Assembly (NCBI GenBank): GCA_964519145.1
Contig: CAZFHL010000008.1
Location: forward strand, 1-21,829
Direction: 5' to 3'
From: an uncultured Candidatus Saccharibacteria bacterium
GTDB lineage: Bacteria > Patescibacteriota > Minisyncoccia > Phycocordibacterales > WO2-35-19
DNA length: 21,829 bases
The position numbers and the translations under genes are program-made. The first letter of the stretch is position 1; each line of letters starts with the position of its first letter. Under the pieces are notes generated by a model. It did no database searches and had not been told where the DNA came from. It saw only the letters and a list, made by a program, of their open reading frames with translations. Shown here one piece after another: positions 1 to 19,460 of this stretch.

Positions 1-155
1 ATCACACCTTTTTGAACCACGGATATTTTTTTGCTAAAAAATTCCTGCGAAGCTGTTTCAGTCAAACTCGCTAGGCTTCAAAAAGGTATGATTTCGACGA
101 GTTTTGAAATTTAAGATTATAAAAAGCCACACTTGCGACGACTTTTGAAAGAGGT
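1..155. repeat. Mosaic intergenic repeat, copy A, truncated by the window edge. Contains module M2 with a variable GC core at 47-67 and terminal module M4 ending cgacgacttttgaaa.
   Basis: Near-identical to 11397-11511 (copy B) except for the 21-nt core. Its 3' end cacttgcgacgacttttg is repeated at 2200-2218. The outer inverted repeat acctttttgaa / ttcaaaaaggt encloses the core. Confidence 0.7.
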
Positions 156-2091: not shown

Positions 2092-2223
2092 TATTCCAAA
2101 AGTCTTTCTTAGTATAGTTTTTGCTAGACACGCATAAAAATCTGCTGATTTTTTGCTATGCTCGTCTCGGTCAGACTTGCGCAAGTCTATCAAAAACTAC
2201 ACTTGCGACGACTTTTGGAATAT
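2092..2223. repeat. Mosaic intergenic repeat, copy D. The complete unit is terminal inverted repeat attccaaaagtctttctt ... cgacgacttttggaat flanking module M3.
   Basis: Positions 2111-2199 are almost identical to 19263-19356 (copy C). The internal palindrome is gacttgcgcaagtc. The termini TTCCAAAAGTC / GACTTTTGGAA are inverted. It lies 55 bp upstream of cca. Confidence 0.75.
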
Positions 2224-3763: not shown

Positions 3764-4194
3764 TTATTTTTCAACATAACAATAAGCCATGTGTTTAAAG
3801 ATATCTTTAAATCTAAATATGCTTTTAAATATGAACTATTTATATAAGACTTATATAAATAAGACATTAAAATTAAAAATAAGACAGTTATCCACAACTA
3901 GTCCTTTACACTTTGTTTTAAAAGACATATAATGATATCAGACAGTTAGTATTGTAAAGTAAATTCTAACTATTGGTTCTTTAAAAAGTTCCTTTTGTTT
4001 TTAAAAAGAAAACTTGGTTAAGCAAAAGAATCAAGATATATACATCTCCTCAAAATAATATTTAAAAAATGTGAGATTATATCATTTCTTTTGAACGCGC
4101 TTCTTGACTGGGATTATCTTTTAAATAGATTCCCGGCTCCACCTGTGAATATAATAAAAATTGTATTTAGAAGTGGGGCTGGGTAGAGTGTGTC

Positions 4195-4250
4195 AAGCCA
4201 CTTGTGTTTTAGCGAATCCTCCACCGCTAAAAATGGGTGGCTTTTTGTTT
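4195..4250 (+). terminator. Intrinsic terminator-like hairpin plus T-tract. It may end a small RNA in the 3764-4341 spacer.
   Basis: agccacttgtgttttagcg ... cgctaaaaatgggtggct forms a long imperfect stem. ccacc/ggtgg is the inner stem. It is followed by ctttttgtttatc. Confidence 0.35.
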
Positions 4251-4298
4251 ATCTTATTTTTAGATATAAACAATTTATTTTTGTTTTATTTTTAAAAA

Positions 4299-4306
4299 AT
4301 TGTATA
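4299..4306 (+). promoter_or_regulatory. Extended -10 box (TGTATAAT) 36 bp upstream of the DUF378 gene
   Basis: The sequence attgtataattga matches TGnTATAAT. Confidence 0.3.
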
Positions 4307-4341
4307 ATTGAGAGTATTAGAAGTTAATATAAAATAAATAT

Positions 4342-4557
4342 ATGAAAAAGCTTCATGGTTTAACTTTCATTCTTCTTGTAATTGGAGGATTGAATTGGGG
4401 ACTAGAATTTTTAGGGTGGGGTATTGGAAACTATATTCCATCTGGTATAGCTAGCTTGATTTATCTTTTGGTAGGTATTTCAGCTATTATTGAAATCTTT
4501 TCTCATAAATCAAACTGTAGATGCTGTGATAGCTCTAGTATGCCTAAACCAATGTAA
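4342..4557 (+). CDS. DUF378-family small membrane protein with a Cys-rich C-terminal tail
   Basis: 71 aa with two TM helices. The GGLNWGL motif is characteristic of DUF378. The tail is CRCCDSS. Confidence 0.7.
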   Translation: MKKLHGLTFILLVIGGLNWGLEFLGWGIGNYIPSGIASLIYLLVGISAIIEIFSHKSNCRCCDSSSMPKPM

Positions 4558-4578: not shown

Positions 4579-4606
4579 CAAAAAATTACCGAGAGGTAAT
4601 TTTTTG
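4579..4606 (+). terminator. Intrinsic terminator: aattacc-gagag-ggtaatt followed by TTTTTG
   Basis: 7-bp stem plus T-tract, 22 bp after the DUF378 stop. Confidence 0.6.
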
Positions 4607-4638
4607 TTATAAATTGAGTCTTTTAGAGCCATTTGAGT

Positions 4639-4733
4639 GGTACTAGTATTTATGTGCCTAGCGAGCGCGACTGGCGCTGGCTTCGCAGGAATTTTTCACC
4701 AGAAAAATATCTGTGCACAGAAATACTAGTATC
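4639..4733. repeat. Mosaic repeat, copy E. Module M2 in inverted orientation, enclosed by its own 17-bp inverted repeat tactagtatttatgtgc / gcacagaaatactagta.
   Basis: Reverse complement contains gatatttttctggtgaaaaattcct + 22-nt GC core + tcgctagg. Compare copies A and B. It sits between the convergent DUF378 gene and xth, so it may also act as a bidirectional terminator. Confidence 0.65.
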
Positions 4734-4757
4734 GGAAAAATGGTTTTAAAAAATCTA

Positions 4758-5555
4758 TTATAAATCAATTTCTAAAATAATAGGGCAGTGGTCTGAACCC
4801 ATTACATCTGATAAAATTTTGCTTGATTTTATTTTCTTTTTTAATTTTTCACTAATTATAAAATAGTCTATTCTCCAACCTATATTTCTAGCACGAGAAT
4901 TTGCAAAGTTCGTCCACCAAGAGTAGTACCCTTTTCCCTCTGTAAACATTCTAAAACTATCTAAAAACCCAGCATTTAGTATTTTTTGGAAACCATCTCT
5001 TTCTTCTTTGGTAAATCCATGTTCACCTTCGTTTTGCTTTGGATTGGCAAGATCGTTTTCTGTGTGAGCTACATTTAGGTCTCCACAAAAAATCACAGGC
5101 TTTTCTTTTTCTAACTCTTTTATATATTCTAAAAATGCCGGATCCCAACCACTATGACGAAGGGGGAGTCTAGATAAATCTCCTTTTGAGTTTGGGGTAT
5201 ACACTGTCACTACAAAAAATTTTTCAAACTCTGCTGTTAAAACTCTGCCTTCTTTGTTTGGATTGCCATATTTATCTTTTTCTAAATTATATTTTTGAGC
5301 GATTTTTTCAGGTAAATCAAAAATAACTTTGAGAGGTTTAACTTTGCTCATTATGGCTGTCCCAGAATATCCAGCTTTTTCTGCACAGTTATAATATTCT
5401 TCATAATCTGGCAAGTCTATTTCTATCTGGTGTTTTTGAGCTTTGATTTCTTGAAGACAAACAATATCTGGTTTGTATTTTTCCAAAAATGGTAAAAATA
5501 AACCTTTGTTATTGATGGCTCTTATCCCGTTTACATTAAAAGATACAATTTGCAT
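4758..5555 (-). CDS. xth: Exodeoxyribonuclease III / AP endonuclease (EEP family)
   Basis: MQIVSFNVNGIRA...CLQEIK at the N-terminus, the WRIDY motif and SDHCPI at the C-terminus. 265 aa. Confidence 0.9.
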   Translation of the reverse strand: MQIVSFNVNGIRAINNKGLFLPFLEKYKPDIVCLQEIKAQKHQIEIDLPDYEEYYNCAEKAGYSGTAIMSKVKPLKVIFDLPEKIAQKYNLEKDKYGNPNKEGRVLTAEFEKFFVVTVYTPNSKGDLSRLPLRHSGWDPAFLEYIKELEKEKPVIFCGDLNVAHTENDLANPKQNEGEHGFTKEERDGFQKILNAGFLDSFRMFTEGKGYYSWWTNFANSRARNIGWRIDYFIISEKLKKKIKSSKILSDVMGSDHCPIILEIDL

Positions 5556-5620: not shown

Positions 5621-6135
5621 TTAGGAGCCTTTTTCATTTTCTGATAATTTTACATAATTTTTGATATTTATTAAATAATCATAAAATTCTGAACCCAGTC
5701 TTTTATATAAAGAAGATGCAAATTTTTTATTTGGGAACATTATTTTTTTAAGTTTGTTTTTTGATATTAAATAATCAATTAATTTTTTATAATCACCGTC
5801 TCCTGAAACCAAAATAATTTTATTCAATTTTTCATCTTCTAGTAAGCTTTTCATGATTTCAAAAATAATATCGGTATCAACATTTCCTCTCTTTTTTTTA
5901 ATGTATATTTATTGTGTTCTTTAAATAAAACAATAAAACCAGCTTTTTGTATGTTTTTGTATAGTTCTTCATTTTCTTCTTGTAAGTATCCTAGGAAATA
6001 ATAAGCTTCAGAAACACAATATTTATCCTTTAAATAGATTCTAAATTTTTTTAAATCGATAAACCAATTATCCTGCTTTATCCCAAGGTATAAGTTTTGA
6101 CCATCAATAAAAGCAAAATTGTTTTCTTTTTGCAT
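5621..6135 (-). pseudogene. NYN/LabA-like (PIN-like) nuclease gene split by a frameshift in a homopolymer
   Basis: ORF 5851-6135 carries the N-terminal FIDGQNLY motif. ORF 5621-5854 carries ILVSGDGDY. The -1 frame across the junction reads KKKRGNVDTDIIFEIMKSLL, which is the missing NYN core. Adding one A to the A8 run (T8 at 5892-5899 on the plus strand) restores a single ORF of about 171 aa. Confidence 0.7.
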
Positions 6136-9228: not shown

Positions 9229-9269
9229 AATCGGAACAGTGCCTTGGCACTGTTCCGATTTTCTTTTTG
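9229..9269 (+). terminator. Strong intrinsic terminator: aatcggaacagtgcc-ttg-ggcactgttccgatt followed by TTCTTTTTG
   Basis: 15-bp perfect stem directly after the flotillin stop. Confidence 0.75.
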
Positions 9270-10920: not shown

Positions 10921-10932
10921 TTAATTTTTTAT

Positions 10933-10966
10933 AAAAGTCGATACATATCGACTTTTATTTTTTTAT
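10933..10966 (+). terminator. Intrinsic terminator: aaagtcgat-aca-tatcgacttt followed by TATTTTTTT
   Basis: Perfect stem plus T-tract after the stop at 10920. Confidence 0.65.
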
Positions 10967-11077: not shown

Positions 11078-11344
11078 ATGCTTACAAAGAATAAAAAACA
11101 AAGAATAATAAAAGAAGTAAAGGTTCATGACACTGATACAGGAAGTCCTGAAGTCCAAATAGCTATATTGTCTAGAAGAATAGATGATCTTTCTTCACAT
11201 CTAAAGAAAAATAATAAAGATAAGCACTCAAGAAGAGGTCTTTTAAGTTTGGTGGCGGACAGAAAGGCTCATATGAAATATTTAGAAAAAAAGGATACTA
11301 AAAGATATAACTCTTTGATAAAAAAACTTGGTTTGAAAAAATAG
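11078..11344 (+). CDS. rpsO: 30S ribosomal protein S15
   Basis: TGSPEVQIAILSRRIDDLSSHLKKNNKDKHSRRGLLSLVADR...LIKKLGLKK matches the S15 signature. The track start at 11072 is TTG; an in-frame ATG is at 11078. Confidence 0.9.
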   Translation: MLTKNKKQRIIKEVKVHDTDTGSPEVQIAILSRRIDDLSSHLKKNNKDKHSRRGLLSLVADRKAHMKYLEKKDTKRYNSLIKKLGLKK

Positions 11345-11355
11345 TATACCAATTC

Positions 11356-11511
11356 TCCTTCAAAAGTCTTTCTTGTCTTAAATTACAAAACTCTTTCTCA
11401 TCACACCTTTTTGAACCACGGATATTTTTTTGCTAAAAAATTCCTCGAGCTCGCTCCGTCGAGACTCGCTAGGCTTCAAAAAGCTATGATTTCGAAGAGT
11501 TTTGAAAGATG
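11356..11511. repeat. Mosaic repeat, copy B. Full unit of left inverted-repeat module, M2 with a variable core at 11446-11465, and right terminus gagttttgaaag.
   Basis: Aligns base for base with copy A outside the core. The left end ccttcaaaagtctttctt matches copies C and D. It sits between the rpsO stop and the NYN/pilB operon. Confidence 0.75.
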
Positions 11512-17866: not shown

Positions 17867-19150
17867 ATGAAATATATAAAAATAAAAGAAAAAGGGAATG
17901 CTCTCATAATAAGCGTAATATTTTTTATTGTCATATCAACAACTATAATTTTTGGATTCACTAATCCAATAGTCTCTTATATATCTTCAGTTTCTGCTGT
18001 TAGTTCAACTAAAAAGAGCTTTTATGGTTCTGAGGCGCTACTAGAAGATGTTGTTTACAGGTTAAAATCTGGGCTTACTGTATCTTCACCGCAAAATATA
18101 ACAATTGGAAGTACCACTGTCACTGCTGTTATTGGTGATGAATCAGGATATAAAACAATTGTATCTACTGGAAACAACAATAATTTTATAAGAAAAAATA
18201 AATCAAAATTAATTTTAGGAGAAGGGGTTGCTTTTAATTATGGTATTCAGGTTGGAGAAGGGGGGCTTGTATTACAAAATTCTTCTTCTATAACTGGAAA
18301 TGTTTATTCAAATGGCACAATTTCTGGTAGCTCAAACTTAATTACAGGTTCTGTGGTTTCTGCTTCAAATATGGGGGTTGTAAATGGTATTAGGTCTACA
18401 GACTCTGTATATGCAAATAGTATACAAAATAGCATTATAGATAAAAACGCTTATTATACAAATATAATTAATTCAACTGTTTATGGTGTGTCTTATCCAA
18501 ATAGTCCAAATCAGGGTACTACAACTTTTCCAATATCAAATACAAAAATAGATGAGTGGAAGGATGAGGCTTTGCAAGGTGGAATAATAAGCTCTCCTTG
18601 TCCGTATAGAATAAATTCTACAACTACTATTGGTCCTAAAAAAATAAATTGTGATTTAGAAATAAGTGGAAACAATATAACTGTATCTTTGGCTGGGCAT
18701 GTTTGGGTTTCAGGAAATATAAAAATAAAAAATTCGCCAATTGTAAAAGTGGCTACAAGTTTAGGACAAAATAGTGTTGCTTTGATAGCAGATAATTTGT
18801 CCGATAGATTAAGTAGTGGTAAAGTAGAAATAGAAAATAGCACAACCTTCCAAGGTTCAGGTTCTTCAAATTCCTATGTTCTTGTTGTTTCAAACAACAA
18901 TAGCGCAAAAAATGGTGGTTCTGTTAATGCTATTTTGATCAAAAATAGTGTTTCAGGTGCTTTGGTTTCTTATTCAAATGAAGGGGCTACTGTTATTGAA
19001 AACAGCGTTTCATTAAAAGAGATTACAAGTTATAAACTCACTCTCAAAAATACAGCCAATGTGGTTTATGAATCTGGTTTAGTGAATCTTATTTTTAATT
19101 CTGGTCCAAGTGGTGGTTTTGATATTTCAAATTGGGGGGAAGTGGAGTAA
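17867..19150 (+). CDS. Large pilin-like protein, rich in Ser/Asn/Thr/Gly and predicted beta-rich. Possible pilus-associated adhesin or tip protein.
   Basis: N-terminus KGNALIISVIFFIVISTTIIFGF resembles a non-canonical prepilin segment with no Glu at +5. The body has beta-helix-like repeats of the form NxxxSGxV. It is the last gene of the minor-pilin operon. Confidence 0.55.
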   Translation: MKYIKIKEKGNALIISVIFFIVISTTIIFGFTNPIVSYISSVSAVSSTKKSFYGSEALLEDVVYRLKSGLTVSSPQNITIGSTTVTAVIGDESGYKTIVSTGNNNNFIRKNKSKLILGEGVAFNYGIQVGEGGLVLQNSSSITGNVYSNGTISGSSNLITGSVVSASNMGVVNGIRSTDSVYANSIQNSIIDKNAYYTNIINSTVYGVSYPNSPNQGTTTFPISNTKIDEWKDEALQGGIISSPCPYRINSTTTIGPKKINCDLEISGNNITVSLAGHVWVSGNIKIKNSPIVKVATSLGQNSVALIADNLSDRLSSGKVEIENSTTFQGSGSSNSYVLVVSNNNSAKNGGSVNAILIKNSVSGALVSYSNEGATVIENSVSLKEITSYKLTLKNTANVVYESGLVNLIFNSGPSGGFDISNWGEVE

Positions 19151-19168: not shown

Positions 19169-19375
19169 TATTCCAAAAGTCTTTCTCATTTTCAATTTCA
19201 AAACTCTTTCTCATCACACCTTTTTGAACCACAGATACTATGTATCTCCAAAAAATCTTTTTTAGTATAGTTTTTGCTAGACACGCATAAAAATCTGCTG
19301 ATTTTTTGCTATGCTCGGTTCAGTCAACCTTGCGCAAGTCTATCAAAAACTATACTAAAAAAGATTTTTTGGAAG
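19169..19375. repeat. Mosaic repeat, copy C. Left inverted-repeat module, a palindrome gatac-tat-gtatc, then M3 nested inside ccaaaaaatcttttt / aaaaagattttttgg.
   Basis: 19170-19238 matches 11357-11425 (copy B). 19263-19356 matches 2111-2199 (copy D). Lies between the pilin-like gene and tpiA. Confidence 0.75.
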
Positions 19376-19460
19376 GTGTTGTTGTTTAAATTTTACTTTA
19401 TCAAAATATAAATTTTGATATAATGGGTAAATGATAAATAAACAAAAAGTGGGTAGGATT

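Follow-up and report, generated by a model that had tools for sequence, protein, structure and literature searches.

Five copies of a branched intergenic repeat in the window

The stretch analysed here, referred to as the window, is the whole of contig CAZFHL010000008.1 (21,829 nt) from an uncultured Candidatus Saccharibacteria bacterium (assembly GCA_964519145.1), and has a G+C content of ~30%. Pfam identified in it cca (start at 2279), xth, a gene for an Xer-type integrase, rpsO, a NYN-domain gene, a type IV pilus cluster, tpiA and pgk; genes for tRNA-Pro and tRNA-Arg (the latter at 1970-2042) are also present. The next relatives of the CCA-adding enzyme are ~70% identical proteins named Patescibacteria, Paceibacterota or Zambryskibacteria. 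The subject of this work is a non-coding repeat, strictly intergenic, present in five copies named A to E, which together cover ~815 nt, i.e. 3.7% of the contig. A preliminary description of the window, made from the sequence alone, had already listed five copies, and a covariance model run with filters off returned exactly five matches at these places (66-80 bits, E 1e-14 to 1e-17); the next-best match stayed below 15 bits, so that no sixth copy was found in the window. Two details had to be revised. The core of copy E lies where it had been reported, but 4639-4733 are not the limits of the element, as its hairpin arms span 4604-4768. Moreover, copies had been said to fill essentially all the larger intergenic gaps: this is the case for five of the seven gaps of at least 200 nt, the other two (1157-1969 and 3764-4341) holding other things.

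All five copies fold as a long outer stem with a Y-shaped tip, far more stable than shuffled sequences. In the model that we derived, the core is a three-way junction, formed by a closing stem and two hairpins, HP1 and HP2, at the tip of an imperfect hairpin of 100-210 nt. The closing stem has the form TTTTTG-N5 ... N5-CAAAAA. HP1 is made of 3 bp, a bulged T, 7 A/T bp and a four-base loop of the TGCT type, and differs by type: ATTTTTT-TGCT-AAAAAAT in the copies described previously as carrying module M2, AAAAATC-TGCT-GATTTTT in those with module M3, and ATTTTTC-TGGT-GAAAAAT in copy E. HP2 consists of a short lower stem, an internal loop and a variable apical stem of 4 bp closed by a loop CGTC, CAGTC or CGGTC. 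In copies A, C, D and E the apical stem reads GTTT/AAAC, GGTT/AACC, GTCT/AGAC and GCGC/GCGC, respectively; that of B deviates, and the other four window copies have CAGTC or CGGTC as HP2 loop. M2 and M3 are therefore both present, but they are not separate modules: they are homologous and represent two subtypes (II and I, respectively) of one core. Similarly, the variable 'core' noticed inside them exists, and is in fact the apical stem-loop of a conserved hairpin. A search of Rfam 15 gave no match on any window copy at E<=1, nor on two of the elements from relatives described below (L073 and L008) at E<=10.

Copy D (2092-2223, plus strand, subtype I, 73.9 bits, fold z ~ -7.4) begins 50 nt after tRNA-Arg and ends 56 nt before cca. 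Its outer stem is TATTCCAAAAGTC / GACTTTTGGAATA and its inner stem 2110-2129 / 2185-2199; the arms 2092-2129 / 2185-2222 are 82% complementary. HP1 occupies 2132-2156 and HP2 2160-2180, with the apical GTCT-CGGTC-AGAC at 2164-2176. Copy A (1-155, plus strand, subtype II, 66.4 bits) is cut by the contig start; it comprises a 5' closing arm (1-20), HP1 (21-45), HP2 (47-71, apical GTTT-CAGTC-AAAC at 55-67), a 3' arm (74-109) that includes TTCGACGAGTTTTG at 93-106, and a right terminal module (110-155) with GACTTTTGAAA at 140-150. Inside the latter, a small terminator-like hairpin for orf149 is found on the minus strand (139-126). Copy E (4604-4768, minus strand, subtype II, 68.3 bits, core 4636-4733) is inverted and lies between the convergent genes for DUF378 (end at 4557) and xth (stop at 4758), DUF378 having its own small hairpin and T-run (~4583-4608) just before the element. 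Its outer arms of 54 nt (4604-4657 / 4715-4768) are unrelated to those of A-D; HP1 is at 4688-4712 and HP2, with apical GCGC-CAGTC-GCGC, at 4661-4686.

Copy B (11356-11511, plus strand, subtype II, 79.7 bits), between rpsO (end at 11344) and the NYN gene (11622), starts with the left terminal sequence TTCAAAAGTCTTTCT (11359-11373), followed by AAACTCTTTCTC (11388-11399), the 5' arm (11400-11419), HP1 (11420-11444), HP2 (11446-11468, with the deviant apical stem CTCG-CTCCGT-CGAG) and a 3' arm that extends to 11507 and contains TTCGAAGAGTTTTG (11491-11504). Copy C (19169-19375, plus strand, 74.9 bits, fold z ~ -9 to -10), between orf427 (end at 19150) and tpiA (19431), is composite: an A/B-type left arm (19169-19232) and a remnant of the start of a subtype II HP1 (19233-19246, within a weak model match at 19212-19263) precede a complete subtype I unit, which has its own 36-bp stem, 97% complementary (19247-19282 / 19338-19373), HP1 (19285-19309) and HP2 (19313-19333, apical GGTT-CAGTC-AACC). 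At the end of this copy, ACACCT in the left arm finds its pairing partner in AGGTGT (19375-19380).

Pairwise alignments agree with the shared modules and inverted termini reported for the window (E 1e-16 to 1e-37). A 1-112 and B 11400-11511 are 91% identical over 110 nt (E 3e-27), D 2098-2199 and C 19251-19352 are 93% identical over 102 nt (E ~1e-36), B and C are 90.6% identical in their left arms (64 nt, E 2e-16), and A and D match at 19 of 19 nt at their right ends; E has in common with A and B only the M2 core, inverted (32 nt, 90.6%). The terminal 11-16 nt are common to B, C and D on the left and to A and D on the right; in copy D the inverted pair TTCCAAAAGTC (2094-2104) and GACTTTTGGAA (2210-2220) is outermost. 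Outside the core, A, B and C have an extra stem, AAACTC-TTTCTC ... TTCGAA-GAGTTT, whose internal loop is asymmetric. The family is mosaic, as had been proposed, with shuffled arms and one nested copy (C). The differences between paralogues are not spread evenly along the core, but cluster in the apex of HP2 (47-71 compared with 11446-11468; 2160-2180 compared with 19313-19333): five of the seven differences between C and D fall within 13 nt, with pairing kept in all, and most of those between A and B within ~20 nt.

Covariation and selection on the core

To evaluate the predicted junction, 20 cores were aligned with MAFFT, an alignment which is not fitted to the structure, and 14 pairs were considered. 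Paired cells amounted to 91.8%; shuffling the columns gave 66.8%, and sliding the partner by 1-3 columns gave 34-59%. Double-sided changes were found in 62 cells against 19 expected, and 11 of the 14 pairs covary. RNAalifold, applied to the same alignment, predicted HP1 and HP2 unaided. The same covariation picture was obtained from 40 sequences, in an alignment that is fitted to the model.

The most direct evidence of selection came from a pair of orthologous elements in two closely related loci (L048:3277-3373 and L038:830-926; L-numbers designate individual loci of relatives). The 85-nt core is 100% identical in the two, as is the adjacent tRNA-Pro, while the neighbouring UPF0102 open reading frame (ORF) shows many differences (roughly 85-90% identity, by eye). 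The outer stem differs at four base pairs, and all four are compensatory transitions. At this fixed locus, purifying selection therefore acts both on the sequence of the junction and on base pairing in the stem, which speaks against relics that are selfish and inert and points to a structure useful to the host.

Distribution of the element in related genomes

The sample of relatives consisted of 80 loci around cca from related Paceibacteria species, in total 1.15 Mb, in which the cca proteins are 50-66% identical; it covers only ~2-3% of each genome. Further copies are found there: blastn-short together with iterated nhmmer (profile hidden Markov models) gave ~25 significant matches in the 80 loci, and the search with covariance model R1 yielded 40 at E<=1, 32 of them at E<0.01, namely the 5 of the window and 27 in 23 of the 80 loci. 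Exact 20-mer scans found no match in genome contigs and, in metagenome contigs, one chance match in unrelated DNA; a strict two-hairpin descriptor, which proved too strict, recognised four of the five window copies and none in relatives. The core is conserved, whereas the outer stems differ completely among genomes. Nevertheless the arms remain matched to each other, since cognate 5' and 3' arms pair at a mean of -26 kcal/mol compared with -12 when arms of different copies are combined; in 20 of 31 copies no other arm pairs better than the cognate one. The outer module with the asymmetric loop of A, B and C was found again in L017 and L037. The high density noted in the window is real, with one copy per 4.4 kb (5 per 21.8 kb) compared with ~1 per 42 kb in relatives.

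The copies can be grouped in subtypes. C and D of the window belong to subtype I, and A, B and E to subtype II; relatives contribute about ten copies of the former and about six of the latter. Subtypes III and IV share the backbone GGTCAGG ... CGACCCC ... CTCCGTCTTG and are located 8-100 nt past the 3' end of tRNA-Arg, tRNA-Gly or tRNA-Lys, often between the tRNA and cca (L003:9501-9601, L008:9749-9849, L074:9887-9987, L061:9575-9675, L083:2676-2784 and others). In 15 of 16 of these copies the orientation is the same, the tRNA strand carrying the reverse complement of the modelled strand; in type IV the two loop motifs swap hairpins. In the window, the slot between tRNA and cca is occupied by copy D, which belongs to another subtype and has the orientation opposite to that of the tRNA-linked subfamily.

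Other slots are also occupied in several genomes: rpsO/NYN (window B, L080, L017), cca/xth (window E, L046, L012, L011, L080, L072), the position after an ORF of ~146-149 aa (window A, L048, L038, L014), and that 17-31 nt upstream of murI, encoding an Asp/Glu racemase (L072:12206-12301, L079:5470-5564, L071:2310-2404, all of subtype I and in one orientation). By Pfam, the ORF of ~146-149 aa is UPF0102 in L048; blastp showed no homology between it and orf149 of the window. At the murI slot the upstream gene is divergent in two of the three genomes (L079 and L071), and therefore promoters must overlap the arms of the element. In the same slot, occupants vary in subtype and orientation from genome to genome; in L017 the whole element at rpsO/NYN, including the asymmetric loops of the arms, is inverted with respect to the window. 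Longer versions with internal insertions occur in L012 and L017a. In L083, the closest syntenic relative, no copy was detectable at rpsO/NYN or DUF378/xth, and the DUF378/xth spacer (5020-5095) is occupied instead by a plain long AT-rich perfect palindrome; the slot is empty in L082 as well, where the genes for DUF378 and xth are 6 nt apart. Varying occupants and empty slots indicate that the slots are reused, copies being gained, lost or replaced. Contigs also end at copies (the window starts inside A, L082 ends inside a copy and L014 starts beside one), which fits a multi-copy repeat that breaks assemblies.

Position of the copies with respect to transcription units

An extragenic position, mainly downstream and between co-directional or convergent genes, was observed for all five copies of the window and for most of the 35 in relatives, with the exceptions of L079 and L071, in which they lie between divergent genes. 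In the window, copies B, C, D and E come after rpsO, orf427, tRNA-Arg and xth, respectively; copy A is parted from orf149 by the small terminator of that gene. The preliminary description had placed copies immediately upstream of cca, tpiA and the NYN-pilB operon: Pfam agrees on these neighbours (PF00121 for tpiA), but it is more accurate to say that a copy comes after the upstream gene or tRNA than that it precedes the next gene. The accompanying proposal that they supply terminators or promoters is plausible, and four copies sit in the slot expected for a terminator.

A consensus scan identified canonical terminators at 9229-9260 (bidirectional), 10931-10958 and 1264-1241, and none in the four element-bearing spacers after rpsO, orf427, tRNA-Arg and xth, under a loop limit of 8 nt that excludes branched hairpins. 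The sole flag within the elements was the small minus-strand hairpin in the right module of copy A. The site at 9229-9260, between the convergent SPFH and Xer-type integrase genes, is a textbook bidirectional terminator with a 14-bp stem and a plus-strand T-run, so the window genome also uses ordinary terminators. By eye, the tails after the outer stems are T-rich in D (TGTTTAAT) and C (TGTTGTTT) and not in A, B and E, and a promoter-like box is found close to the next start codon, as for TGATATAAT, 7 nt before the ATG of tpiA. As read from the table of neighbours, among subtype I/II copies with co-oriented neighbours or upstream of murI ~11-12 are co-oriented and 3 are not.

Possible role and origin of the elements

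The results above show how the copies are built and placed, that their core covaries and is conserved across genomes, that orthologues are under purifying and compensatory selection, and that the copies are mosaic and patchy in presence and orientation. We favour, tentatively, the following explanation: the copies would be structured repeats similar to the enterobacterial repetitive intergenic consensus (ERIC) and to the repetitive extragenic palindromic sequences and bacterial interspersed mosaic elements (REP/BIME), co-transcribed with their neighbours, marking transcript ends, and spreading by duplication and recombination. With the same reserve, we take them for members of an old family of structured extragenic repeats, not filed before, that belongs to the Paceibacteria (Patescibacteria, or Candidate Phyla Radiation, CPR). 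We infer that the elements are transcribed along with the neighbouring gene or tRNA and act at RNA level as transcript punctuation, a giant hairpin standing at the slot expected for a terminator; it could end or insulate the upstream transcript, protect its 3' end, or provide a double-strand processing site, and the junction with its loops might be the contact surface for a conserved protein. New copies would arise by duplication, insertion and recombination between copies, processes that here may have generated mosaic arms, one nested copy and the unusual density. Near-identical paralogues with shuffled arms, the nested copy C, the varying occupants of the slots, the patchy presence and the 10-fold higher density here all suggest duplicative spread.

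On the other hand, several observations weigh against transcript punctuation. The hairpins do not look like canonical terminators: in the closing stem the T-run is on the 5' side and the A-run on the 3' side, and T-rich tails are only partial. For the copies of L079 and L071, which lie between divergent genes and upstream of murI, a role at 3' ends cannot apply. The strand is equivocal as well. The reverse complement of the modelled strand folds more stably in 35 of 40 copies, and the tRNA-linked subtype is, on the tRNA strand, the reverse complement of subtypes I/II (15 of 16). G.U and A.C pairs are mixed: one basal pair alternates between G-C and A.C, the latter being G.U on the other strand, and the other pairs include 10 G.U against 6 A.C on the modelled strand. 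The signals of G.U pairs and of folding energy as to the strand conflict. Furthermore, a plain hairpin would suffice for termination or stability, and such a role alone does not explain the sequence of the junction. Nor does punctuation account for the clustering of paralogue differences in the HP2 apex; these could derive from AT-biased mutation of the sole sequence-free G+C stem followed by compensation, or could reflect a diversifying process.

A more ambitious proposal sees in the Y-tipped hairpin a new class of host-functional structured RNA in Paceibacteria, either partner of a conserved protein or signal for processing or termination, which began as a tRNA trailer, spread in the manner of short interspersed elements (SINE-like) and has the HP2 apex kept deliberately different between copies; we consider it rather unlikely in this complete form. 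Less likely still, in our opinion, is that the copies are independent genes for small non-coding RNAs of ~100-200 nt, each a long hairpin whose three-way junction would bind a protein, with their own promoter or released from tRNA precursors, acting in trans, for example by sequestering a protein. Deep conservation and covariation are typical of functional RNA, mixed orientation to neighbours is normal for free-standing RNA genes, the trailer subtype, 8-100 nt after the tRNA and in a fixed orientation, could be released by tRNA processing, and the outer module shared by the window, L017 and L037 would also suit such genes. Against them, no conserved promoter was seen at a fixed distance, promoter-like matches being no commoner than in shuffles of this AT-rich DNA, and some copies are 7-17 nt from stop or start codons, with no room for signals of their own; moreover, truncated, mosaic or nested copies are still retained, and the copy number varies ~15-fold among genomes.

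The spread of the family could instead be that of a hairpin-dependent mobile DNA (REP sequences or their doublets, REPINs, with a REP-associated tyrosine transposase, RAYT, or a derivative of IS200/IS605), in which the core, folded as single-stranded DNA, would be read by an HUH/Y1-type or other structure-specific enzyme, effects on transcripts being a by-product. The hairpins of IS608 and of REPs are read in a similar way by their transposases, and the bulged T of HP1 and the conserved loops would suit such an enzyme. Covariation without conserved stem sequence, near-identical paralogues, nesting, the different subtypes and whole-element orientations in one slot, the patchy presence among syntenic relatives and a weak bias of orientation with GC skew (25 against 15 among all copies, and 16 against 7 among those with a clear skew) would all follow. 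However, no Y1 transposase or RAYT was found in the Pfam-scanned ORFs of the window, and a weak test, tblastn of 1.2 Mb of relatives with two approximate query sequences, gave nothing significant, a weak match at E 0.05 having no Pfam domain. The purifying selection on the L048/L038 core and the compensatory changes of its arms are not expected of a purely selfish relic. Known REP sequences are largely species- or genus-specific, whereas this core is common to genomes with cca only 50-66% identical. In addition, CGTC is here a loop, and not the unpaired terminal tag of CGTC-REPs (PMC3733652). We hold mobile DNA of this kind to be improbable. [quoted passage not shown] The elements are non-coding, multi-copy and 130-210 nt long, their terminal 11-16 nt recur at several ends, as reported above, and TA is present at both ends of D and at the left end of C. 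Nonetheless the termini are not family-wide, being complete at both ends only in D and present once each in A, B and C, while E and every copy in other genomes are devoid of them; the conserved and covarying part is the central three-way junction and not the ends; and no target-site duplication could be demonstrated, because the right end of A and the left end of B lack TA, and TA beside a palindromic end is indistinguishable from extension of the repeat. No transposase domain was recognised in the Pfam-scanned ORFs of the window.

Further candidates were discarded. A viral or phage origin was not supported, as the core pattern matched in IMG/VR only a G+C-rich ORF, by chance, and blastn against phages gave none. 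A riboswitch or leader is at odds with the unrelated neighbours (cca, tpiA, NYN, murI, xth, tRNAs) and the mixed orientation, and an integron attC, CRISPR or TIGR array with dispersed copies, housekeeping genes between them and no R'/R'' core. The S15 autoregulatory three-way junction does not apply, since copy B stands on the 3' side of rpsO and the remaining ones are elsewhere. A type I toxin was suggested by a 26-codon hydrophobic ORF out of copy B, which in A has only 8 codons and is not conserved. Flipping of the core in situ by recombination between arms was dismissed because the asymmetric arm loops of L017a are inverted along with the core. Finally, as to a DNA uptake sequence, the likeness to GCCGTC is superficial, CAGTC or CGGTC being the HP2 loop in four of the five window copies.

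Other features of the window

The two large gaps devoid of copies have features of their own. In the region 1236-1803, on the minus strand, a strong promoter-like site, TTGACA-17-TATACT with TG (1803-1775), and the terminator-like hairpin at 1264-1241 flank ~530 nt in which no ORF exceeds 85 aa; between 1201 and 1400 the G+C content is 53%, compared with ~30% for the contig, and the fold z is -6.3. No Rfam match was obtained at E<=10, nor any similarity among 83 related loci. This region is a candidate structured RNA. The 578-nt spacer after cca (3764-4341) has no ORF >=60 aa and is 71.5% identical over 404 nt to L083; ten or more relatives have conserved a piece of ~60 nt (3886-3945). Within the spacer are a perfect DnaA box, TTATCCACA (3888-3896), a promoter-like site close to the consensus (3905-3933) and, at 4224-4240, a hairpin resembling a terminator; the spacer may harbour a gene for a small RNA or a promoter under the control of DnaA. 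On the minus strand at 5621-6135, a second NYN-domain gene is split in two adjacent ORFs (5851-6135 and 5621-5854), each matching half of the Pfam NYN profile; it is likely a frameshifted pseudogene or a sequencing error.

Comparison with known repeat families

Genomes of Patescibacteria/CPR are regarded as streamlined and repeat-poor, and the RNA biology of these organisms is almost unstudied; a search of the literature in full text turned up no account of repeats or RNAs of this sort in CPR bacteria. A structured element whose junction covaries and is conserved in sequence, present in about a quarter of the sampled loci of relatives and amplified to ~3.7% of a 22-kb contig here, could be a concrete starting point for learning how transcripts are ended, processed or stabilised in these organisms, or for the study of a new kind of small mobile module. 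The element explains assembly breaks in such metagenome-assembled genomes (MAGs), and its covariance model is usable across all CPR genomes.

In its behaviour the family resembles the ERIC sequences, or intergenic repeat units (IRU), of Enterobacteriaceae and Vibrio, reportedly the subject of work by Hulton in 1991 and by Wilson & Sharp in 2006. Both are imperfect palindromes of ~100-130 nt with sequence conserved across genera, strictly intergenic and in either orientation; ERIC is believed to be transcribed and has no known transposase. Longer versions with internal insertions (here L012 and L017a) and copy numbers that differ more than 10-fold among related genomes are also common to the two. 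The likeness is one of behaviour only, and the phylum is another; the tip of the present element is a covarying three-way junction with two hairpins, and one of its subfamilies is tied to the 3' ends of tRNAs.

REPs are single hairpins of 20-40 nt with an unpaired terminal GTAG or CGTC tag (PMC3733652). REP/BIME and the present copies are alike in being extragenic palindromes, mostly after genes and between co-directional or convergent ORFs, in their mosaic modules, and in the roles proposed, termination and mRNA stabilisation. By contrast, REPs usually occur as dimers, while the present elements, of 100-210 nt and branched at a three-way junction, fall outside the GTAG-/CGTC-tagged definition, have CGTC/CAGTC as the HP2 loop, and have a core conserved far more widely than typical REPs.

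The likeness to BOX and BIME drawn in the preliminary description is apt as an analogy between mosaic, nested-palindromic intergenic repeats. The BOX elements of Streptococcus pneumoniae are built from boxA, boxB and boxC modules in variable combinations and, like the present copies, are modular intergenic repeats with long stable hairpins and variable sets of modules. Their sequence is unrelated, they vary in the number of boxB, whereas here cores and arms vary, and they are without a deeply conserved junction. In Neisseria, the Correia elements, also known as NEMIS, have conserved 26-bp terminal repeats, a TA duplication and a hairpin that is an RNase III substrate. They and other prokaryotic MITEs resemble the present family in a length of 100-160 nt and in their inverted ends; they are co-transcribed with neighbours and can carry outward-facing promoters, features that the present copies may share. 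Here, however, the termini are not common to the whole family and no duplication can be demonstrated. The family thus fits none of ERIC, REP/BIME, BOX and Correia, even though structured intergenic repeats as a kind are already known; what sets it apart is the deeply conserved three-way junction together with a subfamily linked to tRNAs.

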